From the NCBI GenBank assembly GCA_034226945.1, contig CP120458.1, forward strand, positions 682,001-746,000: a stretch of 64,000 bases of DNA, given 5' to 3'. Numbering within the stretch: the stretch's first letter is position 1; each line of letters starts with the position of its first letter. This stretch comes from Picochlorum sp. SENEW3 (taxonomy: Eukaryota). Both the position numbers and the translations under genes were made by a program. The notes beneath the pieces are model-generated. The model had not been told where the DNA came from, did no database searches, and worked only from the letters and a program-made list of their open reading frames with translations. Positions 8,396 to 64,000 of this stretch are shown here, one piece after another.

Positions 8396-8688
8396 TGTAA
8401 CAGTACGAGGGTTGTACTGTTATGGCGCACCCGTGGAGGAGTGTTCTAGAACCTTCTAGAACCCATGACGTGACAGTGTTCATGAAATGTATAAATACCA
8501 TGCTCCAGCCCTAGGCTGGAGGACTTCAAATATAACTATTTCTTACAGTGTAACGTCGGACCAATGGAGCAACTAGTATCATTATATGGGCCCCGCATGA
8601 TATATTTGGGACGCTTACTCATTGTGTTGCAATGAGTACTCCCACGACGACGACACTTTTGAACAGGGAACACCTCGCCCCTGTTACA
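8396..8688 (+). repeat. 3' LTR (293 bp)
   Basis: TGTAACAG...CTGTTACA inverted termini, preceded by purine tract AGCGGGAAGGAC; TATAAATA at 8490-8497. Confidence 0.9.
8443..8462 (+). promoter_or_regulatory. Perfect four-unit heat-shock element in LTR U3
   Basis: gTTCtaGAAccTTCtaGAAc, alternating nGAAn pentamers, about 30 bp upstream of the TATA box. Confidence 0.7.
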
Positions 8689-13881: not shown

Positions 13882-14145
13882 CAAAGGCAGTGGCAAATAA
13901 ATCTACGCTATTGATTCAACTCGAGATACGACTCCACCTGTTATCAACCCACTAATACATGGAGGAGACCAGTGTCAGAGTAACTCTAGCAGGTAAAACT
14001 GTCATAAACGACCTTGATCCAGAGTACCATAAAAACACAAGTTTCCAGCGAGAAGTAGCCAATAATAAAAACTGAGGTCTGTGGCAACCGAAATAGGGGA
14101 AAAGAAGCTAGTGCAAGAGGTGAGAAGACCTACAGGAGGCACAAA

Positions 14146-34900: not shown

Positions 34901-37540
34901 GAGTTTATCCATTGCGTCATTTGGAATACACGTGTGTGAATCCGATCGATTTGCCTGTTGCCCTTGCTGCAGCTGTCGTTTGCAATCTTTGATGTGTCGG
35001 TCAATGCCCTGTTCCTCGGCTTGATGTAAAGCCAGCTTCAGTGCTTCAATTGCTTGGTTCGAGGCCTGGTTCCATATTTTCCCCAGTTGGCGTTTAATAT
35101 GTGGATACTGCTCGAGTATCATCCGATGTCTGTCAGTGTCCGGCAGAGACCCTTGGGTTTCCTCCGAGAGCCAAACACCACCCTGGAATGAGGAGAGGAA
35201 AGCCTCGAATGCGTTCCTCGCCTCCTTCATTGCAAGTGGGTGGCATTTTGCTGCGGTTTTAATCCTTTTCATGTATTCTTTCTGCACGGGTGCAGCATCT
35301 TTATGGGGCAATTTCCGATGATGCTCATGATGACTGGCTTATGGTCTGATACTATTCCGTGGCTGTGGATCTCTATCGTTTTGATAGGTTGTGTGATATA
35401 TCTGGTCATGTCTGACGAGGCATAGAAGCGGTCCAGGCGGCTATGAATAGTTCCTTCCATGGTTCCATGGTGTTGTGTGTACATGTGTTTCTGTCTCAGT
35501 GTCTCCTGTTGGCATTCTGTGATCGAGTCCCCTACAGTTTCTTTCCAGTACCTGATGAGGTATTGTTCTTGTTTGTTGTTGATTCTCTTTGTGGAGGTGG
35601 TATCCAGTGTCTGGTCTTCAACAAAATTCCAGTCTCCAGCATAAATGATTCCCTGTGTTCTCTGTGTATCTTTCTTGATGTGGTTGATCAGAGCCGTGCT
35701 GATCGTCCAGTGGTTGGAGGTGGAGGTGGTAGGCATATACACATTTCCTATTCTTAGTTTATGTCCCGACCAGTCCAGTGAAAGACTGATCATGCGGCCC
35801 ATGCCTTTCCTTGTCACTGTGCTGGGGTGGAGGTGAATTGGTGCTCTGCCTTGCCGATAGGTTCGGATCCAAATTGCTGTACCTCGAGCTCTGCCGTGTT
35901 GGCGATCATTGTGCCAAAATGTTTTCCATTCTGCTTGTGTGTTTCTATCGAGTAGGTCTGTAAAGTTGTGTTCGTCTGTGTTTCCTTTGAGATGGGTTTC
36001 CTGTATCAGGGCAATATCAATCCTGTGATCTTCTAACAGCTTCATCATGGCACTGTATTTGTTTGGGGTCAAGCCTCTTACGTTGAATGTTATGAAGTTC
36101 AAGCCGTTCATCATCATGGATAATGATTTACTTGCGGATGGCATGCGCCTTCTTCTGAGGCGATGCCGTTGGTGAGGGGCCTGTGGCTAGCTTTTTTTGG
36201 TGAGCCTTGCTGCTCCCTCTTTTTGGTCGAGGCTCTTGTGATCCTCCTCTGGCTCTCCTCCCCTATCAGGTCCTGCAGATTGTTGTGTGCTTCTTCAGAG
36301 TTGTCCAGGCCTGACGTCGCTGTGTTGCTCGCCACAGTGCGTGTCTCTGCAGACACCACATCCTCTGAGTCCTCTGTGTTGCCGGCTTCCCTTGGTCCCT
36401 CTTCCCTCTGTGTCATAAGCTTCATTCGTTCCATCCTGTTGGTTGGCGGCGGTGTGCTGTGGGTCGACAAGGTTGTCGTGTTCTTCGGTGTTGGGTGCCT
36501 CCTGTTGGTCCTCCTCCATCTGTTGTGCTGGCTGGGGTGCTGATGTGTCCTGTGTTTCTGTGTGTGCTTCTTGTGTCTGGTTTACTTGGGCTGCGAATTC
36601 CTCGCTTGTGATGTTCACGAAATCGTCGGTTTGGATTTCGTTGTTCTCCACTATGGCGGCATACTGTACTTCTCTCACTGGGTAGTTGGCCAGGGTTGGT
36701 ACTGTGTCCAATGAGACATGTGGGCGGCGGGGTCTGAGTACCTGCCACTCCAGTGCAGGTCCTGTTGGGCCCACTGGGATGGTGCCATTCTGTCCTGGCC
36801 TGTTGTCCTTGTAGGTGATGAGCCATTCTGTTGCATGGAGGTATTCTGGCATTTCTCCGGCGTTCCTCGTATGGCTGCGAGGTGCGCATGTCATTATCTC
36901 CGCTTCTTTCGAGATGTTACCTTTGTTTGCCAAGTGTTGCATGATACTTCCCAAGAACTGTTGAAGCAGCTCCGGTGTCGAGTTGGGACACCCCGTAAGA
37001 TGGCTTGTTGCGTCTGTGTCTGAGTTTCATACTGTACAGTCACCGGGAACTGTTTGTCTTCATGTTCAAAGAACATCCAGGACCCGTCATTGACGATATT
37101 TCCGAAATGTGGCTGAAATTCCCGCAGCACCCACATATTCCAGAAAATCCTCAGTGTCTTTGTTTTGGTGGCATAGTGGTGGCCGATCTTCTCCTCCGTG
37201 AACATCATCTTGTGGGGATCTTCAATGTTATCTTGCAATAAAGGTTGATTTCCGTAGGCTTGCAACCCTTGTTCGAGGTGCAAGATGATGGATCGGTCGA
37301 TTCGCAATTTCAAATTTTGAATGTACGAACGTTCCGGTTCTCCATTCTCGCACTGCAGGGTGGTGGTGAAAGTCACTCTTGCTGACTTTGTTGCTTTTTC
37401 TGCTTCTCGCAGAGCCTCCATAAAGTTCTGGAGGTTGGCGACAGCCGTGGCCATCGTCGCAGGTTGCCTCTCGATGAGGAGTATGAGCTTCTCGTTATGT
37501 TCAGAAACACTACGATCTTTGATCAATTATTGTTTATATA
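31974..37540 (-). mobile_element. LINE family A, copy 3 (apparently full length, inverted relative to copy 2)
   Basis: Reverse complement of copy 2 with the same 5' terminus TATATAAACAATAATTGATC; poly(T) from 31974. Confidence 0.95.
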
Positions 37541-37600
37541 CATGTAATGTTTTTTATTTTCCAGTCTTACATGCCCGGTGGTGATGCATAGTGAAAGATG

Positions 37601-42835: not shown

Positions 42836-43465
42836 TTTTACGGGCCTATAGGGGGGAAAAACTTTATATAGCTGTAACCACAAACGCGATTCCCGCTTCC
42901 CTGCAGCAGGATAAATTACACTGTGTACATAAAACTCAATATTAATACATTATAAGACTGGAACAGGGAAGCCAAGAAGTGCCTTGGGACGTGGCGTTCG
43001 TGAGCGACGAATTAGTGAAAAAATCGGTACAAAAAGCGTGCGTGCACTTATATGTTGCACACCGAGTACCATCGGGACAGTACATTAAATACAAAAGATT
43101 AAGATACACATTATAGGGGTGAATGGCACGCCCGGGTGGCTAGACATCACTTACAGAAAGGATGGTGGCCTCCTTAAATCCCAAAATTCTCTGAGGGGCG
43201 TATTTTATTATTTCGATGACGCCATCGAATAGAGGGTAAGAAAATATGTCTATTGAAACAAAAATGAGGAAATTTGGTGCGATATTCGAAAAGTTATGGG
43301 GCCCTGTGTAAAATGGCTTGTGTGAAAATTTTCTGAAGTCAGGTCGACCGCCTGTGATACTAATTAAGGAACTTCTGGTGTCGATCACAAGGCACCCAGA
43401 TCTTCCACAATAGCCTCGATTCACTGCTGTTACTTGGAAATTATTTATACTTTATCCGTTTATTG

Positions 43466-46400
43466 TCATTCGATATCGACACTGTCCGCTGCTGCGAAGG
43501 TGGAACCTCGGGTTGGGAAGAAGGCAAGCATTTTGTCCATTTCTTTCTTGTGGCCGTCCTCCACAAGCTTGTAGTGGGGCCATTCTCCCTCCCAACCATC
43601 TTTTGACATTTGAAAACTAGAAACTTGGCAGACGATATCGTCGATCGGTACGCTGAACACACGTTCGTCATGCCTCCACAGCCTCTCTCCTGTGAACTCC
43701 TTCACCATGTACACAGTGGTTCCATGGTAATCCATCTTTTCCGTCTCATATATCCCACAAATCGCGTATCGTTCCACTTCATCTGGCTTCCGGGGACTGA
43801 ATACGCGGACAAATTCATACACCACCCCAACATGGTGAGCCTCAGAATCCTTGTCCCTCAGCAAGACAAAGTGTGACCGCCTCTTTGTATCACGCCTGTC
43901 ATAGAATGTTTTCACACAACAGCCTTTGCCATCTACCAAGACGTTGCAAGAAAAATGACTGTACAATTTGATATCTCTCTGCGGCTCCCTCGGTCTCTCG
44001 TCCTGGTGCTTTGTGTGAAACTCCCTGATGAGATTCAACTTCTTCTTCTCGATGGACTCCCTCAGCTTATCCTTCTGCTGCTTCGCAGCATCTCGAGCCT
44101 CGATGCATTTCGTCGTACTTCGCTCTACTCCTTTCCCTTGAAGAGCATACGTGGTGCTTGGATGGGCGTCGTACATGGTGCCCGAAGCCGTTCGGTGTTG
44201 CTTCGGGGCATACACTGGGATGGCACTCTGGTCGGCTGGCCCTAACTTGTGCTTGGCTTTCTCCAATGCCGATCTGATAAGATACCGTTTTGCTAATGTT
44301 GCCTCGGGCGTATTGATACAACTCGTCGAGGAGACGGCCCGCATAGCCCGTTCGACCCACAGCTCTGACAACTGGTGCAGTGGGCCCACAAAGGCCTCCT
44401 GGTGATGCAGGAGGCAGTTGGCTGTATGGAGGTTGGGCGTCAGCAATTCGTATGCCTTCTCTTCCTGACATATCCTCGAGAACTGGTGTAGATGCCAGAG
44501 GGCTTGAGATGGCTCGAGCCGGCCGGCTTCAGCGTGGCTCAGGTGATGCATGACAAACTGCCTCAAATGTGCCCAACCTTCCATGCCCTTGGGTGTGAGC
44601 ACAGAAACACCCGTCACCTCCTCGTTGAACAGGGCACATGAATGTACTTCTACGAAAACTTTGACTTCCTCGCAAATCCAAGAGTAGCAGTGCTCTAATG
44701 GCGAGTATGGACGATTGAACGAGTTGTTCAGAGTAATTCCTCTCTCCAATTTCTTGACAGTCTTCTTGCTGTAGACTCTCATACTCCTGCTGTCGGGATC
44801 ACTGGTTTTCTTGTTGCCGTGGCCATCCCACAAATATTTGATAAAGTTTTTTGTTATTCCTAAGAGAATCAGATGGTATAGAGGAGCTGGTATCCCGTGC
44901 TTGACGTGCAAAGTAGGCACGGCATGAAACACTTTTGCATAGTCATGAATCCCAAGCCGATCCTGCCATTCTTGCGTGCTCGATCCGTCGTATATGCCAT
45001 GGGGCATCACAGTTTTCATAATATTTAATATATGTTCCAGGTCAGCGTGTCCGATCGCGGACTGCTGCTGAATTGCATCATCATCACAGCGGGACAACTG
45101 GAACTCTTCGTTGGTGATTCCATTGATATGTGTGACAGGATCCTCCTCCTCGTAGCCTGTGAGTAGCCTTCTCTTATATGATTTGCCGTTTTTGCTAGTT
45201 ATGGCTTCTGAGGCCCGCTGCCAGCAAAAGTAGCACCCTTTGATGGCGTTCCCTGGAGCGCACATGTGGATCTTTTCTCTGGCCTTGGCATCTGCATGAA
45301 TGAATCCCAGTATGGGTCGATGAACTCCAGTATGTCTCACCACATGACCATCTTCTTCCAGTTCATCATACTGATATTCCATGGGAGATGAGCGGAGGCG
45401 CTCAAACTCTTCACCAATAAAACATAAGAAGGGGTTGAGGTTTTTGGGTTCTTTTGGGCCTGGGATAATTCCCAACAATCTCGTGTTGCAGCTGAGATAT
45501 CGGCCTTCAGGGTCCATATCTTCACACTTTAATACAATCAGAGTACAAGAATGTGCTTTCCTTCCAAAAGGCTGGGATCCATCCACGCCGATCGACCAGA
45601 TACTAGTTGTGTCGTCGCCTGCTGTGCTTTCCCTCTCCTTGATCCATTTGAACCACTCGGATGTGTACACCGTGTTTCCTGCGCGACCGCTTTCGATGCT
45701 TTTGTTTCTTGATTCTCGAAATTTGCGCGAAGCGAACAGACTCTGCATACAGTCTTGCACCCCAAAGTAATAAAAGTGCTGCATGGGTCTTGGGCTCCCA
45801 CCCCTGTCGGCCGTGAACCTCTTCCTACCACACCCTGCTCCACATTCTTCACGCATGTCCCTATCTTTGAACGGGACGACGTTGTCGTAGATGTATCCGC
45901 AGGGACACTTATGGTATTCGACAGTCTGAAGGTCTGGAACATCCATGGCCTTCCTCAGAAGGTGGATGGATGGTGGAATGATCATCCTGTCATGGTTGCT
46001 CCTCCCCATCCGAACTACGCTCAAGATATCCTGCATGAGCTCTTTTGATACAGCATGCTTTAACTCTATTTCGAGGAGCGCAGATGTGAGCTGAAGCAAA
46101 GTGCAGGGTGCCTCATCTTCCTCGTCTTCATCCTCTTGTGGCTGATCCAGCCCCTCGCCACGTTCCTTCCCCAACACTGCCATTAGAAAGGTTTGGAAAT
46201 GCGACCCCTGAGTGCACCGAAAGCGTTCACTAGGTACATTCTCGCCATTTGGCTCATGCTCATCACTCGAAGCGTCGCTGTCTTCAAGGTCCTGCAGGAA
46301 GATAGCTTTCACTCTTCAGAACAACAAGAACCAGAATCAGGAAGCATGACATGTGTCTCCTCACCTCGGTGCACACGCTGCCCTCATCGGATGATTCCAC

Positions 46401-46880
46401 TGCTTCATCAAAATCTTCACAGGAGCGAATTGGTAGAGTTTCGTCTCGGTCATAAGGGAGGAGAGTAGTGGACACTTGTCGATCGAGTTGGATTGTGGCA
46501 GCACCATCTTCAAGACTCCTTGGGTGGCACTCATCCGTCACCGCCACATCGAACTTCAAGGCAATCTCTGGATGCTTATTTCGTATGTGCTGGAGCAATT
46601 TCCGTCGATCTAGGTCTCCCGGCTGATTGAGGCACATCCTCTCATAGATGTGAGGCTTCCCATGATAGCCACAAGACTTCCCATACGGGCACTGCACTCG
46701 GCACAACACCTGCCTAGATTCTCGATCGAATCGAATTATGGATGGTCGACATTCACGCTCCAGATGAATGCAAGACTGATGAAAGTCGGTCCACAGTTTT
46801 GCTACCTTTTTTGTTCCAGTTCTCCTCCTCTTTGACCTTCTCCCTCCCTGGGAGGTACTTTGCTCCGTATCACGATTCAT
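43466..46880 (-). CDS. CACTA transposase, two exons (46880-46365, 46291-43466), intact
   Basis: Same motifs as copy 1; predicted intron 46292-46364. Confidence 0.88.
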
Positions 46881-47002
46881 TGGAGATTGAACCAAAAAAC
46901 CATTATTTTATTGTACATGAGCCGTGATGATATGTTGGCAAATCGATAGGAGTCGCTCTCGCACGATGGTTTGCAGATGCATTCAATGATTGGTATGGCA
47001 TT

Positions 47003-49470: not shown

Positions 49471-50623
49471 TGTGATGGGATGCTGTTATTCATAGATAGA
49501 GAGTGTCCAACCGTCCGGTCAAATTGGCATGTTCATAGGCGAAATTCGTCGATTCATGACACCTGAGTTTGGGCTAAGGCTGTTACTGCTCAAGCTTGAG
49601 CCTTAAGGCTAACTGCCCCAGGTTCCATCGCCCGGGTGGAAGCATAATCTACAGCAATCTGCTATGTTTTGGTGCATATTTGCTCCTGAATGTCATTTAT
49701 CGTGACGCTTCCATGCGCAAATGTCATAAAGACCAGATGCTGCAATGCTGCTTTCTTATGGCTCTCAATACGGTGCTGTTGTGGCCATGATGCGCGATGC
49801 ATTAGCCCAAGGCTCATATGTACATGCGATTGTGAACGTGAGGATTGATGGCCGATATAGCTGCTCTTTGTTGGCACAGGGGCACCGATACAAACCTCAG
49901 AGCAGTAGAATCAATGTGGTTCTCTCGAGCTGTGACGTTTGATCATGAAGATCAAGCATGCCATCGAGATTGGTGTGTGTTCTGATTCTAGACAGAATCA
50001 ATGTAGATGCAGCGCTTCATCCAACCAATGTACAGAAGATTATCTCTTCTTTCACAGGATAGTTTGAATTAGAGGTTGCCACATGAGAATAAATCTTCTC
50101 AGTATATGAAATTGACCATGATGACCAGATCTCTCCTAGGGATCTCATCTCCCTAGATGTTGACAAGAGATCTCCTCCCACAGGGACGTAGCTCTCTGCT
50201 ACAGGGGATGTGATTCCAAGAATGGAAACGCAGGTCTGCTCAGCCAAATCACGAATTTGGGAGGTTTGTATCGATATCAGGCAATGACAAATAGCAAATA
50301 AAACTCCGTCGGTGTATGGAGAACTGCATTTATGCAATGTCAGTTGAACCAGTGATCAGTCTACACTGCTATAATGCAAAGGACTTCCAAGGATCTTGTG
50401 AATTACCATGGGGGCCAAAGAAATCAAGAACGCTTGGAAATACATATTAAGGACCATATAAGGTTTCAGTCTCGCCACAAGATTGTCACTACATGCTTGT
50501 TCCCAACTCAGGGCTTGGACAAACCTGGCCTACTGAAAGGGCGGTCCATCCGCCCTTTCCATCCAAACATCACTAGGTCGATTCAAATGTCATGAGACTC
50601 ACGTCAATAAGGGGCCCGCGAGA
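49471..50623 (+). repeat. Degenerate dispersed repeat, copy 1 (two internal deletions relative to copy 2)
   Basis: Aligns with 60661-62373; both end in GTCAATAAGGGGCCCGCGAGA. Confidence 0.85.
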
Positions 50624-50626
50624 ATG

Positions 50627-53600
50627 TTTTTTTTTTTATAGGGGATTATTAAACAGTCGAGAAATATGACGAATATCTTCCAAATCATACAAGCCCCACA
50701 GGAGGAAATCCCTAGATAAAATGACACAGAGGGAAGAGGGACCAAGGGAAGCCGGCAACACAGAGGACTCAGAGGATGTGGTGTCTGCAGAGACACGCAC
50801 TGTGGCGAGCAACACAGCGACGTCAGGCCTGGGCAACTCTGAAGAAGCACACAACAATCTGCAGGACCTGATAGGGGAGGAGAGCCAGAGGAGGATCACA
50901 AGAGCCTCGACCAAAAAGAGGGAGCAGCAAGGCTCACCAAAAAAGAAGCTAGCCACAGGCCCCTCACCAACGGCATCGCCTCAGAAGAAGGCGCATGCCA
51001 TCCGCAAGTAAATCATTATCCATGATGATGAACGGCTTGAACTTCATGACATTCAACGTAAGAGGCTTGACCCCAAACAAATACAGTGCCATGATGAAGC
51101 TGTTAGAAGATCACAGGATTGATATTGCCCTGATACAGGAAACCCATCTCAAAGGAAACACAGACGAACACAACTTTACAGACCTACTCGATAGAAACAC
51201 ACAAGCAGAATGGAAAACATTTTGGCACAATGATCGCCAACACGGCAGAGCTCGAGGTACAGCAATTTGGATCCGAACCTATCGGCAAGGCAGAGCACCA
51301 ATTCACCTCCACCCCAGCACAGTGACAAGGAAAGGCATGGGCCGCATGATCAGTCTTTCACTGGACTGGTCGGGACATAAACTAAGAATAGGAAATGTGT
51401 ATATGCCTACCACCTCCACCTCCAACCACTGGACGATCAGCACGGCTCTGATCAACCACATCAAGAAAGATACACAGAGAACACAGGGAATCATTTATGC
51501 TGGAGACTGGAATTTTGTTGAAGACCAGACACTGGATACCACCTCCACAAAGAGAATCAACAACAAACAAGAACAATACCTCATCAGGTACTGGAAAGAA
51601 ACTGTAGGGAACTCGATCACAGAATGCCAACAGGAGACACTGAGACAGAAACACATGTACACACAACACCATGGAACCATGGAAGGAACTATTCATAGCC
51701 GCCTGGACCGCTTCTATGCCTCGTCAGACATGACCAGATATATCACACAACCTATCAAAACGATAGAGATCCACAGCTACGGAATAGTATCAGACCATAA
51801 GCCAGTCATCATGAGCATCATCGGGAAATTGCCCCATAAAGATGCTGCACCCGTGCAGAAAGAATACATGAAAAGGATTAAAACCGCAGCAAAATGCCAC
51901 CCACTTGCAATGAAGGAGGCGAGGAACGCATTCGAGGCTTTCCTCTCCTCATTCCAGGGTGGTGTTTGGCTCTCGGAGGAAACCCAAGGGTCTCTGCCGG
52001 ACACTGACAGACATCGGATGATACTCGAGCAGTATCCACATATTAAACGCCAACTGGGGAAAATATGGAACCAGGCCTCGAACCAAGCAATTGAAGCACT
52101 GAAGCTGGCTTTACATCAAGCCGAGGAACAGGGCATTGACCGACACATCAAAGATTGCAAACGACAGCTGCAGCAAGGGCAACAGGCAAATCGATCGGAT
52201 TCACACACGTGTATTCCAAATGACGCAATGGATAAACTCTCTTATCAGCTGCTGATGAGACCCAAGGGGAGCAACTGCATTGGAAGCTGACTGACCCAAA
52301 GTCACGGTATACTTATACCAGTCCCAAAGGCATCGCAAATTGCCTTGCCAACACGATTGCAGAGGTATCAAAGCCTCCGCAAACAAATCAGGAAGCCCAG
52401 CAGGAACTGATCGATTTGATTGCGGAGGAAGATCGCACTGTCTTCCCGACCTTTTGTAACCCCTCAGAGACAATCAGCTCACAGGAAGTCGCCAAAGCCA
52501 TCAGGAAAATCCGCAACTCCTGTCCTGGAGATGATGGGTTGCAGATTATCCACTACAGAAAGTTTAGCAAATGGATGTGTCCGATCTTGGCCACACTATT
52601 TTCCGCCATCATCGCAAGGAACGAGATGCCAGCCAAATTTCATCATGGCACGATCAGAGCCATTGAAAAGGGAGGAACCCTGACAGATCCCACCAATTAT
52701 AGACCCATCACCCTACTCAATGTGGACTACAGAATCTTCGGGTTTATCCTGAAGGAGAGAATGACTTTGAGCCTCCAGAACTTGATTCCAGCAACGCAGA
52801 CAGCCTTCCTGCCTGGAAGACAGTCAGCAGAAAACATATGGGCAGTACAGACCATCCCCTACTCCTACACAGAGACAACAGAGAAGCATTGATCGCCCTA
52901 TGCGACTTTCGCAAAGCCTATGACACGATTGATAGAAGCTTTCTGTTTCAGATATGCCATACACTCCAGATGCCAGACTACCTGGTGAGATGGATTCAAC
53001 TCATGCTCCAGGAGACAACCAGTAAGGTATATGCAAACCATTGCTTTTCAGACTACAGACAATTTCATGCAGGGCTGAGACAGGGATGCCCAGCGTCCCC
53101 ACTACTCTACCTGTTAATTGGATTTATGCTAGCTCGCCTGGTACAACACTCAGAACTGGGCATAACAATACCATGTCCACTCCAGACAGACCCAACACAG
53201 TCAGATACAGCCTTGAAGCTATGCCTTTTCCAGTTTGCTGACGACAGCAAACTCATTCTCGAAGAAGATCAGATCCCGCGCTTTAAACAGATTATGGCGC
53301 TGTTCGCTGAGGCAACAGGGCAGCACTTGAACAAGGAGAAGACCAAACTCTTGCCCATAGGCGCCCTCAAGACCCTGCATCACAAGCAACAGATCGATGA
53401 CTTCAAGGTCACAACAGAAGCAAAAATCCTAGGTGTGACACTACACTGCGGAATTGACGCTCCGACATACCATTGGCAAAGCAAAATGTCCCAACTCCAG
53501 CAGCTCACGGATAAAATCAAGCGTATGACAGGACTGTCCATCTTTGCAAAATTTGACCTCTTCAACAAATTTGTCACCTCCAAAGTACTCTATGCTGCAG

Positions 53601-55175
53601 AATTTATCTATACACCGCCATCCATAGTCGATGGCATCCATAAGATGGCAAGGAAGCTTTTACCACCAGATGCACCATGCTGGAAAAACGAAGCAATACA
53701 GTCTAGAGCCGATCTTGGCGGCCTGGGCATGCTCCCCTTTCGGGAACATATCAAGGCCCGTCAATATAAATGGCTCATCAAGCTTCTCGTGTTAGGCACC
53801 ACCACCGTCTGGTCCACGCTGGTATGGAATGCCACAGCACACTACAGAAGAACCAACAGGCCAACAAAGATCATGGCTCTCAGGCTCCTCACCCAGCCGT
53901 GTGAGTTACCGGGAGTCCACCCGGCTCTCATGGAATACAGCGAGGACAACGAGATCTCATTGCACTCGCTGATCAACTCAGTATTCAGGAATCCAACAGA
54001 AGAAAGACAGTGGAACTACTGCTGGCATCGCTACAAAGGAAACCAGTTGCCACTCCACAAGTATACGGTGAAAGATGGCACTCGCCTGATCACCATCAAC
54101 TCGCCAGACCCAGTCAAATGGCAGCAAGCGACCAACAATCAGATTGCTTGGATACACACTGTGAGCGAGATACGGCCCAGGTTCGGTAAGATGCTGGGAA
54201 ACATCAGAAAATGGTGGAGAGCACGGGTGCCCAACCCGTGGAAGGCGATCATATGGCATATAAACTCAGGAGGGCTCCTCGTGAGTCATCTCCCAGCGGA
54301 GAGGCGCAAGGACTGTGCATGTGGACATTCGAAGGCATCAATGGACCATTATGCCCGAGAATGCCCTATTGCCAAACATGTCTACAGCCTCCTCAAACCA
54401 GAAAGCATGCTTGCTGGAACAAACAGCCATTTCCAACTCCTTCTTCACAACATATGGAGCAACACATCTCCAAAGGATGTGGACGATGCCATATGGACTG
54501 AGATTAGTATTATTACCATCAATGCTTTGGATGTGGGCCGTAAAACAGCCTACAGACTCCTCCACCACTCCACCACAGAACATCCACCACAGCCACAGGA
54601 TATCATCAGAAAGGCCAGCCACACAGCAGAGCAGTACTTCTGGGAACTGCTGAAACAACGAAAGCCAGCTTCCCTCCACCATCGCCAACAATGAAAGAGT
54701 TGCCATTCCTGAAATGGCAACCTGCTAACAATCGCTGGGTGTTACAGAAACCCCTGATATGGACCCTGACTAGAAACAGATCAGTGACACTCGTGCAGTG
54801 AACAAGGAAGCGCTTGCCACTTCCAGGACAAACATCAGCATTCCAAGAGAGACTATAGTCAGATTTGCCTGAAGTATGACGGCCCAACTGCTCCTGTACG
54901 GTTTAGTGGTACCCATGGTAAAAATTTCACAACCTGGAGCAGTCGTCATATGGAAGGTCGAGGAAATCTGTTTCATTCACTATGCTACACTCGCTCAAAC
55001 AAAACACTACAGAGGAGTATGTCCAATGGACAATGTACAGGTCGGGAGGTTTTGTATCCCTTTATAAATTCCTCAACATTTTATTTAGGGATTTCCTCCT
55101 GTGGGGCTTGTATGATTTGGAAGATATTCGTCATATTTCTCGACTGTGTAATAATCCCCTATAAAAAAAAAAAAA
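50627..55175 (+). mobile_element. LINE family A, copy 4: 5'-truncated copy fused back-to-back with an inverted 97-bp 3' tail
   Basis: Poly(T) plus inverted tail at 50627-50723; forward copy 50721-55175 ending in poly(A); 3-bp ATG microhomology at the join. Confidence 0.95.
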
Positions 55176-55482
55176 TACATATAGCGTGAAGCAAGGAACT
55201 AGCTTGTTCACACGAGTAGATAGACAGCACCGACAGCGCGACGCCATACAGAGAAGTGGCCTTGTTTTAGGCCCTCAGCTCGTGGGGGGCCAGAACAAGA
55301 CCCGGAAGAGAAACACGTGTTTATTTATTTATTTTGCTCAATATTAGTTGTATATAAACGTGAAATGATGTGTTGTCACGGGCTAAAGATCACGCGTTGG
55401 GGTTGGCGCACGTGTGGCGGTAGCAGAGCTCACACCTGGGTTGATCTTCCACTGCAGACCAAGACTTGTGGACCCTTGAAGC

Positions 55483-56826
55483 ATGATGAGCGAACCCGAT
55501 CAAGATGGAAACACACACAGGATTGTCCAGCGTGATTACCACCGTCCGAAACCTGTCACCAAGACTCTGAAGCACCTGAGACGAGTTGCCAAATCTGCTG
55601 AGCACACTCTCGGGAGGAAGATGTCAACGTTTGAGGGTGGGCAGTATGTGCTGTTGGTCAAAGCTCTCAGGCAGAACAGGAGCGGTCAAATGCATGGTAC
55701 GTGCAATTTTTCGCTACTTTGAGGTTAGTTCATGTTAGTTCATGAAAGAGTTCTCTTTGCTGCAGAGGTTGTGGAGATTGTGGGCTCCCCAGGTTTGAAG
55801 GAGTCTTTTAAAGCACACCAAAGTGATGTGTTGAATGGCATTCCAGCAAACAAGGACGATACCGATGCACCAATCGGCGAGGCCTGTGATCCGTTCCACA
55901 AAGGCGCTATGGTCGCTGAAATACTGTCTGATGTAGAAGATCGAGATCCAGGCAGGGACACCAACACTTCCAGTCCAGATGCGCCAGTACTAAAAGGAGG
56001 TCCAAGCATGACAAGGCTGCCACGGCCAGATGCAGTCGTACCGCCAGAGGACTCACAAGATTCCATTCTCGATATTGGGGGTTTTGGGGATGACGTAGAT
56101 GAGGTCACTCTGATGGACTGGACTGCCCAGCAGGGTGGGAATGTGCCTCCAGTATCCCAAGCATCTTGTTATTCTGCCCTCAAACAACCACGCGTTGCCT
56201 GCAAGGGCGTTGCTCAGAAAGATACACCTGGCAACGAAGATTCGTGGAGATCACTGGTGCATTCCGACGACCCACTCCTGTCGCTGATCCCATGCAAAAT
56301 ACCACCTCTGGCATCAGCGCTACAACAATGTCAGCACAACCACCTGGAAGCATACAAGCGCCTAGGTCTCCTTGTCTCTGGTACGAGTGACTTGACTGTC
56401 GGTTTGTTTCTTCTGTAAAGCTGTGAGGGTGTCAATGTCGACATGAGTTAATATACTGAGTGTATGTATTGTGCAGATGACTTGAAAGGATGGTTTGAAA
56501 CTGGGGTTGGCCATGCCGTATGGAGCACCGTGCATGCACATTATCCTCAGGTGCTTGATCCCACTTTGGTTGCACGAGAAAGAGTGCGTAATGCAAAAGG
56601 TGCATCAACAGAGAGAAGTGAACTGGAATGGCATTCCAAGAGGAGTGAATTCTCCAAGTCTCAGCAGAGTGCACATCAAAGCATCCAAAGCGAGACACAG
56701 ACAGGCATCTTTGACCAAGTCTTTGAGAGATTCCGTGCTATATGTGTAGTATGGCTTATCCTCAGTACCAGTAATCAGATGGAAGCAAAAGATAAACCAG
56801 TCTGGAGCAGGCTCCTTTTTCGTTAA
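55483..56826 (+). CDS. Predicted three-exon gene of unknown function (55483-55696, 55766-56380, 56477-56826)
   Basis: Two phase-1 introns (GTACGT..TGCAG 55697-55765; GTACGA..TGCAG 56381-56476) join three listed ORFs in frame. Confidence 0.6.
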
Positions 56827-57054
56827 GCCTTGGCTGTTCTTTTTACATATAACTCGTGGAATGCAGAATTGATGTGCGTGTTTTCATCAGATGTATTTGT
56901 GCAGAATGCAACTATCGTTCTTAGTGTATGCAATGTTTTTCTTTTTCATTCAGCTATTTCTCCAATCTAGCACGAGAAAGTGGTTGGTCTCTTTCTGTTT
57001 GTCCCAGAAATCAGTGCTCTTTTGACAGTCCATCCACCTCATGTGTACAATCTT

Positions 57055-58208
57055 TTACAAAAAGTCATCATTTGTTGATTGTCGGAGCTTGATTCCCACC
57101 AAAACTCGACACTTAATCCCATTCACACGTCTGGACGCAGTCTTAACACATCTTCCTCGTGCAGGATCATGGAATTGCCTGAGTTTGGATCGCATCTTCG
57201 TGAGAGAGAACTGTAGTCCCAGTGTCTTCCATGCTGACTCAACGTCGGCAGATGTCGAAATGTCAGACTCGTCGCCAGTAATTTGAAAGATGTTGTCAAT
57301 AACAGAGTCGATGTCCTGGCCATCTTCCTGAATCATCAAATCAGCTTCATTCTGGATGCTTTCCGGAAGGTCAGGAAGCTCCCTGGAATAGTAACGAAGC
57401 AAAAGATGCCACACGATGTTTCCCATTTCTTCCGTCTCCAAGCTTTGCTTCAAAGAGGGATCTCCTTCTCTCCAAAATGATGGCCGTTCTTCCTCTGCCA
57501 TTGAGGTGAAAGTTCTCTTGTCCACATATTTGGCCTTGCAATGAACACCACACAAGTCTCCAAAGCATCCTTGGCTGAAACTTCCGACATTTCATTGGCG
57601 TTGTTCACCAGGGTACATTGAGGTGTGATACTGAATGGCATGCCATGGGGAACCCTGAGACGAATAGGGTCACCTCCTGACACAACTTGCTTGATCAGGT
57701 TTGCATCCAGCTTGTGCCCTTTCCCAATGCTTTCATTCGAAAACGCAAGACGACTCCACCGCAGCCCATACACCCATTTCAGTTCATATTCTGCATCACT
57801 TGCATGGGGAGTATCTCTGAATGCTTTGATATTGTATGTGCTGACGTACTCAGGCCCCAAGGCAACTCGGAGCGCTTTTTCAATCACTCCTTTGCCAGAG
57901 TTCCGGTCACCCAAGATGACGAACCATCTCTTATCTTCTGTGTGTCCAGCAACCGCTCTTGCAAGAATCTTTAATAGCGCTCTACCCTGCTCTTCGCCCA
58001 GCGTATCGAAAAACAGAGTCTTTTCAACATGGTCCAGCCTGTCTTCTGGTGGGGCTTGCTCAGGATACTCACGTGGAACAGATACGGTGGTCATATCTTG
58101 GGGACCCACCTCACGAAAAGTCCCCATTCCGAAATCATATACGCCATTCTTCCAAAAGACTTTCTGTCGGCAGCCCTGGCTTAGACGGGACGGGAAATTT
58201 GGATCGTC
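57055..58208 (-). pseudogene. D5/P4-primase-type superfamily 3 helicase (D5_N + ATPase + C-terminal region); one frameshift near 57555; start not identified
   Basis: FWKNGVYDFGMGTFRE (D5_N-like), Walker A GDRNSGKG, Walker B RLAFSNE, IKQVVSGGDPIRLR, motif C LVNNAN. Confidence 0.85.
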
Positions 58209-58641
58209 CTAGTGATATATATCAGTATGCATACTCTCCTCCATTGGTGATCATCATGGAGATTTGTACACCCTTAAATGACCTTCGATTCGGACAGCAG
58301 TGTCTGCTCATGGTGGGAAACGGGTACGGGACCGTTGTGCTGGTCTGCAACTTAGAGGTCTCACTGTCGAGATGAACCGGGGCAACTATCAATAGTTTCA
58401 CCACATATGACTATTATGTATATATATGAACTGGTTGTTGTCCTTTATCTCGTTGAATAGCAACATCTAGCGGTAACACGGGACGCCGCCGACTTCTCTG
58501 TCACATCTTTCGCCTTCGCACACCACTATGCTTTCCCTATATGGGGGACGGATATGAGTTAGTTTAAAAGATTTTTCACATAGACTGCGAGAAGATTTGG
58601 CGAAGGGTTCCTGTCACCAGGCGGGGTGGTTGGCAACTACC

Positions 58642-58898
58642 GGTGGAACACTGGAACACCTCTCAAACTTTTTTTTCTGGGAGATCACATTTTTCAGTAA
58701 CATCTCCTGGCCATAGATGAAAACATGTAAAAACTACTGTTCCACTGTTCCACTGTACCCAAATTTGTACTATTCTTTCCATTTTAACCTATAAATGCCT
58801 CACTTACACGTCAAAACCGAAATTTGTAGACCAAGGGGGAAATATACTACTGTTCCACTACTGTTCCACTACTGTTCCACTAGTGTTCCGGTGTTCCA
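58642..58898. repeat. Iteron-like TGTTCC(A) array
   Basis: Seven forward copies (58738, 58746, 58851, 58862, 58873, 58884, 58892), including 11-bp-period ACTACTGTTCC units, and two inverted copies (58644, 58652). Confidence 0.8.
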
Positions 58899-59131
58899 TA
58901 GTATCTCCCAGAATCATTCGACGCCGATTCCCCATATCTCTTTCACCCAATAACTTGTACTCAATAAGTTGCAGCAATTGAGGGAAAAAAGCAAGGTTAA
59001 CTTGTAACGGTGGTTGCCTCTCTGATCTCTACCATATCCCCACAACTGACGTGAGACCGCGGTAGTCACTCAATGATCCCAAGAGCGGCACATGCGTAAA
59101 ATTTCCAAAATTTTTTTCTCTGCCTCCATGT

Positions 59132-60157
59132 ATGAGAAAAACACAAGTATATGTAGAAGATCCATGGGATGTCGACTCCTATGCTACCAAGCTCAAGACA
59201 CTCTACAGAGCCATGCATGGCCTCAAGAGGACCTCCCCTGTGGACAATGCCAAGGTACGACAATATTCGGAATGGTTGGTCCCCAAGGTCGATGAACTAT
59301 ATTCGTATCTGAGAGAAAAGTACACAAACTTGTCTGTGCTGTCGTCCATGATGCTCCCGGTAGCATCAGCACTCAGGCAGGAACTCGGGGAGGATCATGC
59401 CATCACTACCAAATGGAGAAATGAGGCCACGGAACTGCGATACCGTGCTGACGAGGAAGCCTCCCATAACGTCCAAGATGAAGACTTTAAAACGTACCAA
59501 GAGATATGCAATCGCCGACACTCGATCAGGGAACAGCTGGACAAGGAGCCATCACATACCATCCAGTACTGGCAGTGGTTTGCCCTGTGCTTGTACACCA
59601 TGCAACCACCACTCCGAGCTGACTGGGCAACGTTGTCCATCATTGATGACGTTGAAAAAGCGTTGCCCGGTAAGAACCATCTTGTCCTCACACCAAGTAA
59701 CGCAATCATTCTGATCCAGTGTGACAAGGTCTCACACAGGAAGGGTGGAGCACACATTCCTGTCAAGGCCGAGCTCCACACTGTATTGTTGGAATCCATT
59801 CACAAATTCCCACGATCTGTGGTCGTTCCACGTACATACAAGACATCAAGAAATGCACTGTATCTATCGTATTGTCCAGACAAACCCATCACCAAGATCA
59901 ACTTGTCCCACTTGCTTGGTCAAACTATGGCTTCTCCAGACACCAAAACACCGTGGTCACGCCCAATCCAACGTCTCCGTACAGCATACTCCACCTACAT
60001 CACGTCAGTACCAGTATCGTACCATACCATGAAGACTGTGGCCGCCGCACAACGACACTCGGTGCAGACCATGTTAGTCCACTACAGGGTGGTACCAGCC
60101 TTTGCATCTCGTACCATGCAAGGGGACCCAAACAGCAACAGTAGCTCCACAGGATAG
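59132..60157 (+). CDS. Tyrosine recombinase, virophage/Polinton-like-virus (OLV11-like) type (341 aa)
   Basis: Catalytic pattern: QPPLRADW (R), DKVSHRKG (K), IQRLRTAYST (xxLR), AAAQRHSVQTMLVHY (H..Y); intact and intronless. Confidence 0.82.
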   Translation: MRKTQVYVEDPWDVDSYATKLKTLYRAMHGLKRTSPVDNAKVRQYSEWLVPKVDELYSYLREKYTNLSVLSSMMLPVASALRQELGEDHAITTKWRNEATELRYRADEEASHNVQDEDFKTYQEICNRRHSIREQLDKEPSHTIQYWQWFALCLYTMQPPLRADWATLSIIDDVEKALPGKNHLVLTPSNAIILIQCDKVSHRKGGAHIPVKAELHTVLLESIHKFPRSVVVPRTYKTSRNALYLSYCPDKPITKINLSHLLGQTMASPDTKTPWSRPIQRLRTAYSTYITSVPVSYHTMKTVAAAQRHSVQTMLVHYRVVPAFASRTMQGDPNSNSSSTG

Positions 60158-60660
60158 AACAAAACAGTTAAGATCCTTACGGTAGCAACCATGGCCGAGG
60201 TCATAACTGTATGTTGAGTATGATTCACATAATTCCACCCTAGGATAGGAGCTAGAAACGAACACACCGACAGCGCTAGCTTTTTCCCGTGCAATATCGT
60301 ACCCTATACCCCTTCCATCGTATATTTTATGTTTAACAATAATATTGTATTTCATAAATGTCAACGAACCTTGGTACAGAGGATGCTTCATCCACTTTGC
60401 AAGAGGTCCCAAAGAACAGGGCACTGGATCTCTCGCCAGTTCCCACTCATCCGATCGATTGATGGGTCTCGTTCATTTAAGGGTGTCATCCACGTAGAAG
60501 TACCACCGTAGAACCGAGGCCCCTGGTAGAACCCATGGCCCACAGACGAGATCACAACAGACCAGTGCCTCTCACTCGCGTTGGAAAAGCGCTGGGACGC
60601 CTCATGTCTTCAATCCAGTCGCTTCAACGAAAGATGTTTTCGGAACGGTCAAAGATCCAG

Positions 60661-62373
60661 TGTGATGGGATGCTGTTCTTCACGGATAGAGAGTATCCAA
60701 CTGTCCGTTCAAATTGGCATTTTAATAGGTGACATTCGTCGATTCATGACACCTGAGTTTGGGCCAAGGGTGTCATTGCTCAAGGCTAACTGCACCATAT
60801 TTCATCGCCCAGGGGGGGACATATTCTACAACAATCTGCCATGTTTTGGTGCATATCTGCTCCTGAATGCCATCTATCGTGACACTCCCACGCGCAAATG
60901 TCATAATGACCAGATGCTGCAATGCTCATGCAGCCAAGTCATCTCTCAAATGGAACAGTTACAGCCAACACTTCAATGCCAAGCATCATGGAAACATATA
61001 CAGTCGCGATAAGCGGGTGATATCCGTGAGCAGTACGATTTTCTGCGGATTGTATGCAAGTGCTGATGGTCCTGAGGCCATCCACACCGCAGCCTATTTC
61101 CAATGAAGGTGGGCGTCAGTATCTCCGTCAGTTCCTGCGGTACGAATGTATCGAAACCGTATCATGAACTTGTTGATCTCTAGAGTATGCCTTCGGACTT
61201 CTGTCGGTCCATAACAAGCTCGTTTGTGCCACTGTCCGCTCAAATGCTTGCATGTCACCATATTGCTTTCTTATGGCTCTCAGTGCGGTGCTGTTGTGGC
61301 CATGATGCGCGATGCATTAGCCCAAAGCTCATATGTACATGGAATTGTGAACGTGACGATTGATGGCCAATATAGCTGCTCATTATTGGCACAGAGGCAA
61401 CAATACAAACCTCATAGCAGTAGAATCAATGTGGTTCTCTCGAGCTGTGACGTTTGATCATGAAGATCAAGCATGCCATCGAGATTGGTGTGTGTTCTGA
61501 TTCTAGACAGAATCAATGTAGGTGCAGCGCTTCAGCGGGGTTGATGTTGAATATGAAAGCAGTTACATTGCAAGCCTTTCCCTCCTACTGAAGAGATATA
61601 TGTACCAGTTTGCAGATGGGGGATGTGACAGCGTACATTTCCAGTCGTGGCCTGGATTTCCTTCGCAGGGTACACAATATACTGCCTTGTCACTCTCGTG
61701 TCGTTGCCAACACAGAGCGTTCAACCTTCACACGCAATGAGGTTCGATAGAAGATGGGGTAGAGCACCAACCAATGTACAGAAGATTATCTCTTCTTTCA
61801 CAGGATAGTTTGAATTAGAGGTTGCCACATGAGGTTCAAATCTTCTCAGTATATTGAAATGACCATGATGACTAGATTTCTCCTAGGGATCTCATTTCCC
61901 TAGATGTTTACAAGAGATCTCCTCCCACAGGGACGTAGCTCTCTGCTACAGGGGATGTGATTCCAAGAGATGGAGACGCAGGTCTGCTTAGCCGATTCAC
62001 GGATTTGGGAGATTTGTATCGATATCAGGCAATGAGAAACCGCAAATAGAGCTTTGATGGCGTGTCGACAACTGCATTTGTGCAATGCCAGGTGATCCAG
62101 TGATCAGTCTATACTGCTGTAGTGCAAAGGATTTTCTAGGATCATGTGAATTAGAACGGATGTCAAAGAAACCCAGAACGCTTGGAAATCCATACAAAGG
62201 ACCATACAAGGTTTCAGTCTCACCACAGAATTGTCAGTACATGCATGTTCCCAGCCCATGGGGCTTGGCCAAACCTGGCCTACTGAAAGGGCGGTCCATC
62301 CGCCCTTTCCATCCAAACATCACTATGTCGATTGAAGTGTCATGAGACTCACGTCAATAAGGGGCCCGCGAGA
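60661..62373 (+). repeat. Degenerate dispersed repeat, copy 2 (longer)
   Basis: Aligns with 49471-50623; no long ORF on either strand. Confidence 0.85.
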
Positions 62374-62619
62374 TACCCCTGTGTTGGACTCCATACGCCA
62401 ATTCCCTCGATCCGTGGTCGTTCCATACACCTGTAAGGTAACCCAAATCATAAAGTTCCTTTATTTGTATCAATCGCAGGTTTGAAATGATACAGACGTA
62501 GTAGGAGTCACACAAATTGATCTTACATCGATTGATGTGCTGGTCAGTCGATATAGGGCCGTGATTGGGTGTCAGGTATGAGATGGCCACCCCATCAGCT
62601 GTGTGCTTCAATCAGGCAT

Positions 62620-63448
62620 AGGGTTGGTACTGTGTCCAATGGGACATGTGGGCGGCGGGGTCTGAGTACCTGCCACTCCAGTGCAGGCCCTGTTGGGCCC
62701 ACTGGGATGGTGCCATTCTGTCCTGGCCTGCTGTCCTTGTAGGTGATGAGCCATTCTGTTGCATGGAGGTATTCTGGCATTTCTCCGGCGTTCCTCGTAT
62801 GGCTGCGAGGTGCGCATGTTATTATCTCCGCTTCTTTCGAGATGTTACCTTTGTTTGCCAAGTGTTGCATGATACTGCCCAAGAACTGTTGAAGCAGCTC
62901 CGGGTGTCGAGTTGGGACACCCCGTAAGATGGCTTGTTGCGTCTGTGTCTGAGTTTCATACTGTACAGTCACCGGGAACTGTTTGTCTTCATGTTCAAAG
63001 AACATCCAGGACCCGTCATTGACGATTTTTCCGAAATGTGGCTGAAATTCCCGCAACACCCACATATTCCAGAAGACCCTCAGTGTCTTTGTTTTGGTGG
63101 CATAGTGGTGGCCGATCTTCTCCTCCGTGAACATCATCTTGTGCGGATCTTCAATGTTATCTTGCAATAAGGGTTGATTTCCGTAGGCTTGCAACCCTTG
63201 TTCGAGGTGCAAGATGATGGATCGGTCGATTCGCAACTTCAAATTTTGAATGTACGAACGTTCCGGTTCTTCATTCTCGCACTGCAGGGTGGTGGTGAAA
63301 GTCACTCTTGCTGACTTTGTTGCTTTTTCTGCTTCTCGCAGAGCCTCCATAAAGTTCTGGAGGTTGGCGACAGCCGTGGCCATCGTCGCAGGTTGCCTCT
63401 CGATGAGGAGTATTAGCTTCTCGTTATGTTCAGAAACACTACGATCTT
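62620..63448 (-). mobile_element. LINE family A, copy 5: ORF1 5' fragment (3'-truncated, slightly more diverged)
   Basis: ORF 62595-63521 matches ORF1 and lacks the frameshift seen in copies 2 and 3. Confidence 0.92.
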
Positions 63449-63618: not shown

Positions 63619-64000
63619 TTTTTTTTTTTTATAGGGGATTATTACACAGTCGAGAAATATGACGAATATCTTCCAAATCATACAAGCCCCACAGGAGGAA
63701 ATCCCTAAATAAAATGTTGAGGAATTTATAAAGGGATACAAAACCTCCTGACCTGTACATTGTCCATTGGACATACTCCTCTGTAGTGTTTTGTTTGAGC
63801 GAGTGTAGCATAGTGAATGAAACAGATTTCCTCGACCTTCCATATGACGACTGCTCCAGGTTGTGAAATTTTTACCATGGGTACCACTAAACCGTACAGG
63901 AGCAGTTGGGCCGTCATACTTCAGGCAAATCTGACTATAGTCTCACTTGGAATGCTGATGTTTGTCCTGGAAGTGGCAAGCGCTTCCTTGTTCACTGCAC
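63619..64000 (-). mobile_element. LINE family A, copy 6: 3' end (continues beyond the window)
   Basis: Poly(T)ATAGGGGATT.. tail and 3' UTR nearly identical to copy 3. Confidence 0.93.

Follow-up and report, generated by a model that had tools for sequence, protein, structure and literature searches.

A helicase remnant beside an intact tyrosine recombinase in a Picochlorum chromosome: a possible relic of a virus-derived replication-integration module

How did a viral-type helicase gene and a tyrosine recombinase gene come to lie head to head in the chromosome of an alga, and do the two belong together? The stretch analyzed here (the window; 64,000 nucleotides (nt) of Picochlorum sp. SENEW3, contig CP120458.1, positions 682,001 to 746,000) is a transposon-rich piece of eukaryotic chromosome. 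A sequence-only reading of it had proposed that both genes, located around positions 57055-60157, form either a minimal unit of replication gene, origin and integrase (rep-ori-int) or a reduced endogenous Polinton-like virus (PLV). The second option fits better; this copy is not a working rep-ori-int unit. We consider the locus to be an eroded relic of a replication-integration module from the PLV/virophage gene pool that became fixed in a Picochlorum lineage, and assign this reading a probability of about one half. Its kind is already known and the case is ordinary; the recombinase family and the co-varying repeat arrays are the instructive parts.

In what follows, X1, X7, X12, and X17 designate sequencing runs whose contigs were compared with the window. 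X1 probably derives from the same organism as the window, and X17 is an oligo-dT metatranscriptome whose contigs leave some parts uncovered, for example 59928-60421. P-numbers denote stored proteins and L-numbers denote metagenome or viral loci; the protein collection searched holds 5.8 billion entries.

Helicase remnant, intact recombinase, and their viral relatives

The minus-strand gene at 57055-58208 represents the 3′ half of a D5/P4-type superfamily 3 (SF3) helicase gene, which comprises ~811-830 codons in relatives. The open reading frame (ORF) at 57450-58127(-) holds the motifs GDRNSGKG, AFSNES, GGDPIRLR, and LVNNAN, which correspond to Walker A, Walker B, the arginine finger, and motif C and occur in that order within 57594-57911. 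Seven residues (G519, G524, K525, E578, D599, R604, and N624) are invariant over 26 aligned relatives. The protein matches the PHROG family phrog_1156 ('DNA primase'; E=1e-20) at profile positions 499-688 of 855, the C-terminal helicase part, which bears out the helicase call of the sequence-only reading. Matches to the NCBIfam P4-family model primase_Cterm (TIGR01613; E=7.8e-11) and to Pfam DUF5906 (E=7.4e-5) fall under the curated cut-offs. When a profile of the 26 relatives (alignment A3) was run against PDB, it identified poxvirus primase D5 (E=4.3e-14) and C962R of African swine fever virus (E=1e-9). A phmmer search of 1.84 billion representative proteins with the intact homologue P0026 returned 1525 proteins at E<=1e-3, mostly 750-830 amino acids in length with the matched region in the C-terminal half.

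Comparison with the 811-amino acid relative P0028 reveals how much of the gene is left. In tblastn, residues 420-644 align at 58208-57534 and residues 642-797 at 57543-57082, in two frames; protein homology stops abruptly at 58208, and residues 1-419 have no match anywhere in the window. The frame is shifted by a 1-nt deletion at 57542/57543, directly after ...ETCVVF. Contigs of X7, X12, and X17 carry one extra base after 57542 that restores the frame, and the deletion is common to X1 and the window. With its 5′ part absent and its frame changed at 57543, the gene is neither complete nor uninterrupted: truncation at 58208-58210 and the 1-nt deletion at 57542/3 have left it dead in this genome. 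The proposal of a working rep-ori-int unit therefore fails for this copy, which lacks the first ~419 helicase codons, carries the frameshift, and has its recombinase unit cut at 60635. Extending the helicase ORF upstream through a 26-nt GT..AG 'mini-intron' (~58205-58230) was considered and dropped, as homology ends at 58208 and other strains diverge there.

In the full-length relatives, a conserved N-terminal domain of ~420 amino acids precedes D5_N and the SF3 helicase. Residues D128, D130, and D282 of this domain are invariant. It gave no profile match and was not an archaeo-eukaryotic primase (AEP) by any profile run; from its motifs we take it, provisionally, to be TVpol. The window itself has no helicase N-terminal domain of any kind, PolA-like TVpol included. 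Its helicase corresponds to gene model P0232 ('PSENEW3n2_00000868 [Picochlorum sp. SENEW3]') on a contig of 1,129,626 nt that also bears the recombinase protein P0177. The P. renovo model P0233 (NNA_008652) is 98% identical over the common part and has 234 additional N-terminal residues that are absent from the window. Compared with window positions 57374-57560, P0233 also departs from the helicase frame, ~10 nt or less from the site of the 1-nt deletion, but the frame it enters is another one; an independent frameshift, a mutational hotspot, or an artefact of assembly or gene model could each explain this.

The plus-strand ORF (341 amino acids) is intact and identical to P0177. Its AlphaFold model (predicted local distance difference test score, 83) was compared with PDB by Foldseek, which placed Cre first (E=1.6e-5, probability 1.0, ~340 aligned columns, template modeling (TM) score 0.54-0.59), followed by XerH, XerA, Tn1549 Int, TelA, and lambda Int. 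The sequence-only reading had named the lack of a tyrosine recombinase fold in this ORF as a reason to abandon its proposal; the fold is there. The residues assigned as catalytic, R162 (in QPPLRADW), K199 (in DKVS), R283 (in RLRxAYS), and H309 and Y318 (both in AQRHSxxTMxxHY), are invariant in 19/19 aligned homologues, the assignment being made by motif context and spacing rather than by residue-level superposition. At position 280, where the first His is expected, the window has Q and 3 of the 19 homologues have H.

Sequence profiles place the recombinase in no described family. It has no Pfam, PHROG, NCBIfam, or PDB-profile match, Pfam DUF3504 and Phage_integrase (PF00589) give none at E<=1, and neither of the two recombinase alignments (A1, A4) found anything meaningful among PDB profiles. 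The protein collection contains 25 homologues with 41-93% identity, and a scan of GTDB genomes with A1 returned one contig of 1,788 nt, of the L003 kind. Among predicted viral structures (BFVD), the best matches are proteins of Pyramimonas orientalis virus (E=9.9e-9, TM 0.60) and Aureococcus anophagefferens virus (E=1.7e-8); others belong to Tetraselmis virus 1 and to Heterosigma akashiwo virus ('Tyr recombinase'), and a Qinghai Lake virophage protein matches less strongly. The top matches are uncharacterized proteins of algal giant viruses, and all of these viral matches outscore phage integrases. Judged by predicted structure and by profile, the closest relatives of the recombinase are thus found in algal giant viruses and on small viral contigs.

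The recombinase family is multi-copy, with at least three further gene models on the same SENEW3 chromosome and copies in P. soloecismus and P. renovo. Pairwise ratios of nonsynonymous to synonymous substitution (dN/dS) between the window and L001, L002, and L003 (which L056 equals) are 0.16, 0.16, and 0.18, indicating that the intact gene is under purifying selection. DNA similarity to L001-L004 begins at the conserved leader directly 5′ of the ATG (59093). Both genes are covered by X17 contigs of oligo-dT RNA, and an X1 contig spans 56999-60550.

The tie to the PLV/virophage gene pool comes from viral metagenomes. Helicase relatives with 22-29% identity, mostly over P0028 residues ~105-796, were found at 44 IMG/VR loci whose contigs measure 4.6-26 kb. 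Seven of these 44 loci also encode a recombinase homologue (hmmsearch E 2e-7 to 2e-5 among 1879 ORFs), so that recombinase relatives sit on viral contigs of 16-26 kb that carry helicase relatives as well. An hhalign comparison of the window's recombinase family with an alignment of six IMG/VR recombinase ORFs gave a probability of 97.1 and E=5.9e-11 over 275 columns. Three of the six contigs have matches to Pfam Capsid_N, of which that of L031 exceeds the cut-off and those of L033 and L028 are weak; the scan covered 72 of the 80 ORFs of five loci. The link to this gene pool that the sequence-only reading had drawn is upheld by these alignments.

Repeat arrays, breakpoints, and surroundings

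The head-to-head genes enclose a non-coding region with repeat arrays, as the sequence-only reading had described. The exact motif TGTTCCAC occurs seven times in the window (2.9 expected by chance), always within 58073-58880 and in six cases within 58643-58880. Two arrays in inverted orientation (58643-58658 and 58738-58753) are separated by a 79-nt spacer. L001, whose recombinase is 93% identical to that of the window, has a homologous array with an 11-nt period in which 4/4 aligned repeat units read TGTTAC(AC) where the window reads TGTTCC. L002, whose recombinase is 80% identical, has inverted triple arrays of another motif, AGTTACTT, at L002:1149-1281, likewise 79 nt apart. Because the layout is conserved, the motif has changed, and the change is concerted between copies, the arrays appear to be candidate protein-binding sites. 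The C-terminal domain of phage P4 alpha protein binds octamer iterons at the origin of replication and serves as the model for the arrays of the window; our literature search returned no support for this parallel.

Breakpoints cut the locus on both sides of the intergenic region and again downstream. Contigs of X7 and X12 cease to fit the window at 58210 on the helicase side and at 58230 on the recombinase side and go on with other sequence (X12 for 212 letters past 58210 and 693 past 58230, X7 for 917 past 58230). An X1 contig of 3,552 nt fits the window across this junction. The AT-rich, near-palindromic filler at 58210-58229 resembles a product of hairpin-mediated or end-joining repair. Downstream, X7 and X12 diverge from the window after 60635, and the next 30 letters of X12 are exactly those of L001; therefore, the recombinase unit of the window is cut inside a module of ~80 amino acids (..LGRL..SLQRKISRLPRGE..WTLY..LQ..). 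In homologues of 400-420 amino acids this module is fused in-frame to the recombinase; L001, L007, and L010 have it as a separate unit, and in L003, L004, and L009 its orientation is reversed, which may reflect site-specific inversion. The module edges in L003 bear a perfect inverted repeat of 12 nt (within 2608-2620 and 2919-2930). This pair, the sole one found and confined to L003, was not compelling as a border of the module.

What remains of the element therefore extends over ~57055-60635 (about 3.6 kb) and is bounded by breakpoints rather than ends. The limits 55176-62619 that the sequence-only reading had suggested are edges of long interspersed nuclear elements (LINEs) and of another repeat. 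Three pairs of repeats were rejected as element ends. The 382-nt inverted repeat 54793-55174/63619-64000, a candidate for terminal inverted repeats (TIRs), consists of LINE 3′ ends that recur at 13503-13884 and 31441-31819. The 14-nt perfect inverted repeat 58268-58281/60473-60486 is of a kind expected ~0.2 times per 9.5 kb, and other copies did not support it. As long direct terminal repeats, 49471-50623 and 60661-62373 failed because loose ends in X1 and X17 identify them as a separate multi-copy repeat. The two copies of this repeat are 83-95% identical with indels. The repeat at 60661-62373 has a defined 3′ end (62373, or 50623 in the other copy), is cut 5′ at 60661, and is followed on its right by a fragment of a recombinase paralogue and then LINE sequence. 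Joints from 59755/59760 to 62382/62384 in X7 and X12 belong to contigs of this second paralogue and are not deletions.

To the left of the helicase gene and convergent with it lies a spliced gene, both of whose splice junctions are present in X1 and X17 contigs; the neighbors are likewise adjacent in X12. The encoded protein is acidic and of low complexity, has no family match, and gave no usable match in ESM Atlas when searched with exon 2. In X1, the adjoining segment 55244-55424 reaches a depth of ~750, whereas the contig with helicase and recombinase has ~50; X7 contigs have several loose ends there, and the segment looks like a repeat fragment that is high-copy or highly expressed. Sequence at 55175-55234 is similar to part of a second LINE type (14727-14786), and 55160-55176 is the LINE copies' own poly(A) end.

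One LINE family, encoding ORF1, APE endonuclease, and reverse transcriptase (RT), contributes five copies or fragments to the window that are 97-100% mutually identical, a sign that the family was active very recently in this small algal genome. Next to a 5′-truncated copy lies a LINE 3′ fragment of 100 nt (50624-50723). The window also contains the second LINE type, a Ty3-type integrase, and a transposase related to Mutator-like elements. A 3.7-kb repeat with two copies (2586-6334 and 43148-46895; 97-100% identical) encodes a 948-amino acid ORF with many Cys/His clusters and an ORF of 195-203 amino acids, neither with a Pfam match. This repeat probably represents a DNA transposon whose family is divergent or has yet to be described.

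Table 1 Features of the helicase-recombinase locus and its surroundings (positions in the window unless a locus is named; aa, amino acids)
Feature	Position	Strand	Remark
D5_N remnant and SF3 core (Walker A, Walker B, Arg finger, motif C)	57534..58208	-	P0028 residues 420-644
Walker A, GDRNSGKG	57888-57911	-	
Walker B, AFSNES	57729-57746	-	
Arg finger, GGDPIRLR	57654-57677	-	
Motif C, LVNNAN	57594-57611	-	
Helicase C-terminal domain, other frame	57055..57543	-	P0028 residues 642-797; stop 57055-57057
Junction specific to window and X1	58210..58229	.	20-nt near-palindrome, TAGTGATATAT / ATATATCAGTA
Non-coding region with repeat arrays and conserved AATAACTTGT box	58230..59092	+	accompanies recombinase gene in X7, X12
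Inverted array, two TGTTCCAC-type units	58643..58659	-	one more unit in X12
Direct array, two TGTTCCAC units	58733..58756 (units 58738-58753)	+	
Tandem array, 11-nt period, ACTACTGTTCC	58846..58899	+	three units and degenerate units
Conserved leader directly 5′ of ATG	59093..59131	+	in frame: CVKFPKFFSLPPC
Tyrosine recombinase ORF, 341 aa, intact	59132..60157	+	
R162	59615-17	+	
K199	59726-28	+	
Q280	59969-71	+	
R283	59978-80	+	
H309	60056-58	+	
Y318	60083-85	+	
Start of downstream ~80-aa module	60533..60635	+	reads GKALGRLMSSIQSLQRK; cut off at 60635
~80-aa module in relatives	L001:1659-1953, L007:835-1125, L010:842-1128, L003:2730-2955		inverted in L003
Second recombinase paralogue, 66-nt fragment	62381..62447	+	62382-62447 95% identical to L005:488-553; ~residues 211-240
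Spliced gene, 392 aa	55483-56826	+	introns 55696-55764, 56380-56475 (GT..AG); stop 56824-56826
LINE family copies	8686-13884, 26226-31819, 31974-37559(-), 50721-55174, 62620-63448(-), 63619-64000(-)		nested, head-to-head

Origin of the locus

If the locus is a relic of a PLV/virophage module, the recombinase of intact relatives would integrate and excise a circular form, and the helicase protein would replicate the episome. The arrays between the divergent genes would then be putative protein-binding sites, either origin iterons recognized by the helicase C-terminal domain or accessory sites of the recombinase. In the window, deletion together with insertions of LINEs and another repeat would have removed the rest of the element, so that autonomous replication would no longer occur here; members of the recombinase's own family may still be served by it in trans. 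The two genes are linked beyond the window, too. In P. renovo, helicase and recombinase are the consecutive gene models NNA_008652 and NNA_008653. Two other pairs of helicase and recombinase clusters have longest contigs of equal size, 48,036 nt (P0190/P0184) and 14,111 nt (P0237/P0243); their helicases are 57-60% identical to P0028 and their recombinases 80% identical to that of the window. A third coincidence of size (918 nt) is impossible as linkage, as both fragments would not fit on one such contig. JGI contigs of 7,701, 11,727, and 40,940 nt also bear full-length helicase genes.

Several observations weigh against descent from a viral module. The adjacency in P. renovo is orthologous (98% identity) and hence not an independent case, and equal contig size, the whole of the evidence for the other two pairs, is suggestive only. 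Scans of the 2.9 million IMG/VR contigs found nothing closely related to the recombinase (A1) or to P0028, an absence that fits capsid-less elements too. None of the 11 metagenome loci bearing the recombinase, most of which are shorter than 3 kb, contains the helicase. The upstream neighbor of the recombinase is a gag-like/aspartyl-protease ORF in L003, L004, and L056 and an AEP-primase-like ORF in L002. Among the clusters examined, one helicase model maps to the same SENEW3 chromosome, compared with three or more additional recombinase models (_684, _836, and _873). Finally, no capsid, packaging ATPase, protease, TIR, att duplication, or tRNA was detected in the window, so the case for viral descent depends on distant relatives (22-29% identity for the helicase).

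The neighbors in these recombinase loci deserve description. The ORF L002:2-943(-), divergent from the 80%-identical recombinase, has an ESM Atlas score of 0.96 to the AEP_C962R/Herpes_UL52 clusters and no Pfam or PHROG match. In L003:1-1275 and L056:1-247, a gag-like zinc-knuckle ORF and a retropepsin-like protease ORF lie upstream of the recombinase on the same strand. The L003-type protease ORF matches Pfam gag-asp_proteas (E=1.3e-7), and no RT precedes the recombinase in this subfamily. The recombinase unit of the window is likewise free of RT and RNase H, unlike DIRS, Ngaro, and PAT retroelements, and the nearby RT genes belong to separate LINE copies.

The search for viral hallmark genes covered the window and its flanks in several ways. 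Pfam detected no capsid or ATPase, and no match at all, among 68 six-frame ORFs of the flanks, and transposon and glycosyltransferase domains alone among 17 large ORFs of the window. When the 1879 ORFs of the 44 viral loci were compared with the window by tblastn, they matched the helicase only, except for six weak matches (E 6e-5 to 7e-3) elsewhere in the window that fall in LINE or integrase-type sequence. The major capsid, minor capsid, and packaging ATPase of a PLV/virophage genome are thus all missing from the window in these searches, which divergent capsid genes can escape; the sequence-only reading had also seen no capsid or ATPase nearby. As candidate integration targets, tRNA genes and Rfam families were sought in the window, and none was present.

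Three other explanations were considered. The pair may belong to a family of small, capsid-less integrative replicons of Picochlorum-like algae that comprise a polymerase-helicase, an iteron region, and a recombinase and nothing else; such elements would be excised in circular form and replicate in the manner of integrative plasmids or phage satellites, and the window would hold a dead copy. We view this as possible, if doubtful. It would account for the divergent genes with arrays between them, for the lack of a capsid in the window and of close relatives of either protein in IMG/VR, for the many full-length helicase genes on contigs of just 3-8 kb, and for L002, which has the same layout with an AEP-primase-like ORF instead and keeps the 79-nt array spacer with a different motif. 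Short contigs are, however, expected of repeats in metagenome assemblies, and no complete copy with defined ends was seen: the window copy ends at rearrangement breakpoints. Moreover, distant relatives of both genes occur on contigs of 16-26 kb, with one Capsid_N match above the cut-off and two weak ones. That the two genes are chance neighbors in a transposon nest seems unlikely. An autonomous Crypton-like recombinase transposon would have inserted into an older endogenous viral helicase gene, or next to it, and thereby truncated that gene, which agrees with the many recombinase copies (among them the fragment at 62381-62447) and their differing neighbors, with the single helicase model found in this genome among the clusters examined, and with the divergence of X7 and X12 on both sides of 58210/58230. 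Yet the 5′ half of the helicase is absent beyond the recombinase unit, so the event was not a simple insertion, and the P. renovo model keeps more of the helicase and still neighbors a recombinase model. The equal-sized contigs of two other cluster pairs, the seven viral loci that hold both families, and the lack of a DUF3504 or Phage_integrase match also speak against chance.

It is very improbable that the recombinase is a domesticated host gene with a cellular function and the helicase an unrelated pseudogene. Purifying selection, transcript contigs that cover the recombinase, and its conservation among Picochlorum strains are what domestication would predict; against it stand the many divergent paralogues per genome and per metagenome, the transposon-rich location with variable neighbors, and the retention of all catalytic residues, unlike domesticated Crypton-derived DUF3504 genes (PMC3212892). 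We also raise a broader speculation that we hold to be rather doubtful: Picochlorum-like green algae would harbor capsid-less integrative replicons (with a polymerase-helicase or, in a sister lineage, an AEP primase, an iteron region whose inverted arrays lie 79 nt apart, and a virus-derived recombinase), from which recombinase-only, Crypton-like transposons budded off and multiplied. If true, phage satellites and integrative plasmids would have a counterpart in eukaryotes, and another viral integrase would have been seen to become a transposase.

Descent from a PLV/virophage module, the reading that we favor, carries a practical lesson: a capsid-less helicase and recombinase in a repeat-rich algal region are most simply a worn-down viral insertion, and apparent "terminal inverted repeats" can be the ends of flanking LINEs. 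The locus also documents a recombinase family unseen by Pfam, PHROGs, and NCBIfam that is multi-copy and constrained in Picochlorum and is tied to algal-virus recombinases by fold and profile. The concerted change of the arrays at a constant 79-nt spacing provides a testable handle on site recognition. If strains with an uninterrupted helicase still mobilize the element, virus-derived integrative elements could be studied tractably in Picochlorum, which grows fast and is used in biotechnology.

Comparison with known systems

Kojima and Jurka 2011 (PMC3212892) define Cryptons by a DUF3504-related recombinase. The window's recombinase resembles a Crypton in being a eukaryotic multi-copy family in which a tyrosine recombinase with the full catalytic set is the sole constant gene and RT is absent. 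It differs in having no DUF3504 match (Pfam, E<=1), viral closest relatives, and undefined ends; this comparison was made with the description of Cryptons, not with their sequences. Poxvirus D5 and phage P4 alpha resemble the helicase in its D5_N and SF3 core (D5, E=4.3e-14 with the family profile; P4-family model, 7.8e-11), whereas the N-terminal domain of the full-length relatives is not an AEP primase by any profile run and the NCBIfam and DUF5906 scores lie under the cut-offs.

Giant-virus markers, including D5 primase-helicase, are described from regions of Picochlorum assemblies by Chase et al. 2024 (PMC11633385). Our literature search (supplements outside its scope) found no report of a tyrosine recombinase, Crypton, or integrated PLV in Picochlorum. 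In the survey of Bellas et al. 2023 (PMC10120064), most integrated PLVs encode a primase-helicase and either a tyrosine recombinase or an rve integrase in addition to capsid genes; the insertions were found via capsid genes, measure 15-30 kb, often lie beside retrotransposons, and have TIRs in 47% of cases. By comparison, the window remnant is shorter (~3.6 kb) and has no capsid gene and no TIR; like those insertions, it is integrated and partly degraded, pairs a primase-helicase with a tyrosine recombinase, and is surrounded by retrotransposons.

Further parallels are the PLVs and virophages themselves. As described by Yutin et al. 2015 (PMC4642659), SF3 helicases are fused to TVpol in Phaeocystis globosa virus virophage (PgVV), PLV-YSL1, PLV-RED1, and virophages, and recombinases like that of Organic Lake virophage ORF 11 (OLV11) occur in PLVs, the Organic Lake virophage group, PgVV, and Aureococcus anophagefferens virus. 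The same paper places a recombination hotspot of PgVV next to its recombinase gene, and the arrays of the window lie next to the recombinase as well. Likeness of the window's recombinase to OLV11 and PgVV ORF3 is by description, the link in sequence running through the IMG/VR contigs. The window differs from these viruses in lacking capsid, minor capsid, and ATPase genes, in its truncated and frameshifted helicase, and in the 22-29% identity to the viral relatives. It resembles them in a D5-type SF3 helicase whose full-length relatives have a conserved N-terminal domain of ~420 amino acids, in a recombinase that the Pfam Phage_integrase model does not see and that nevertheless has a Cre-like fold, and in the joint presence of both families on small viral contigs.

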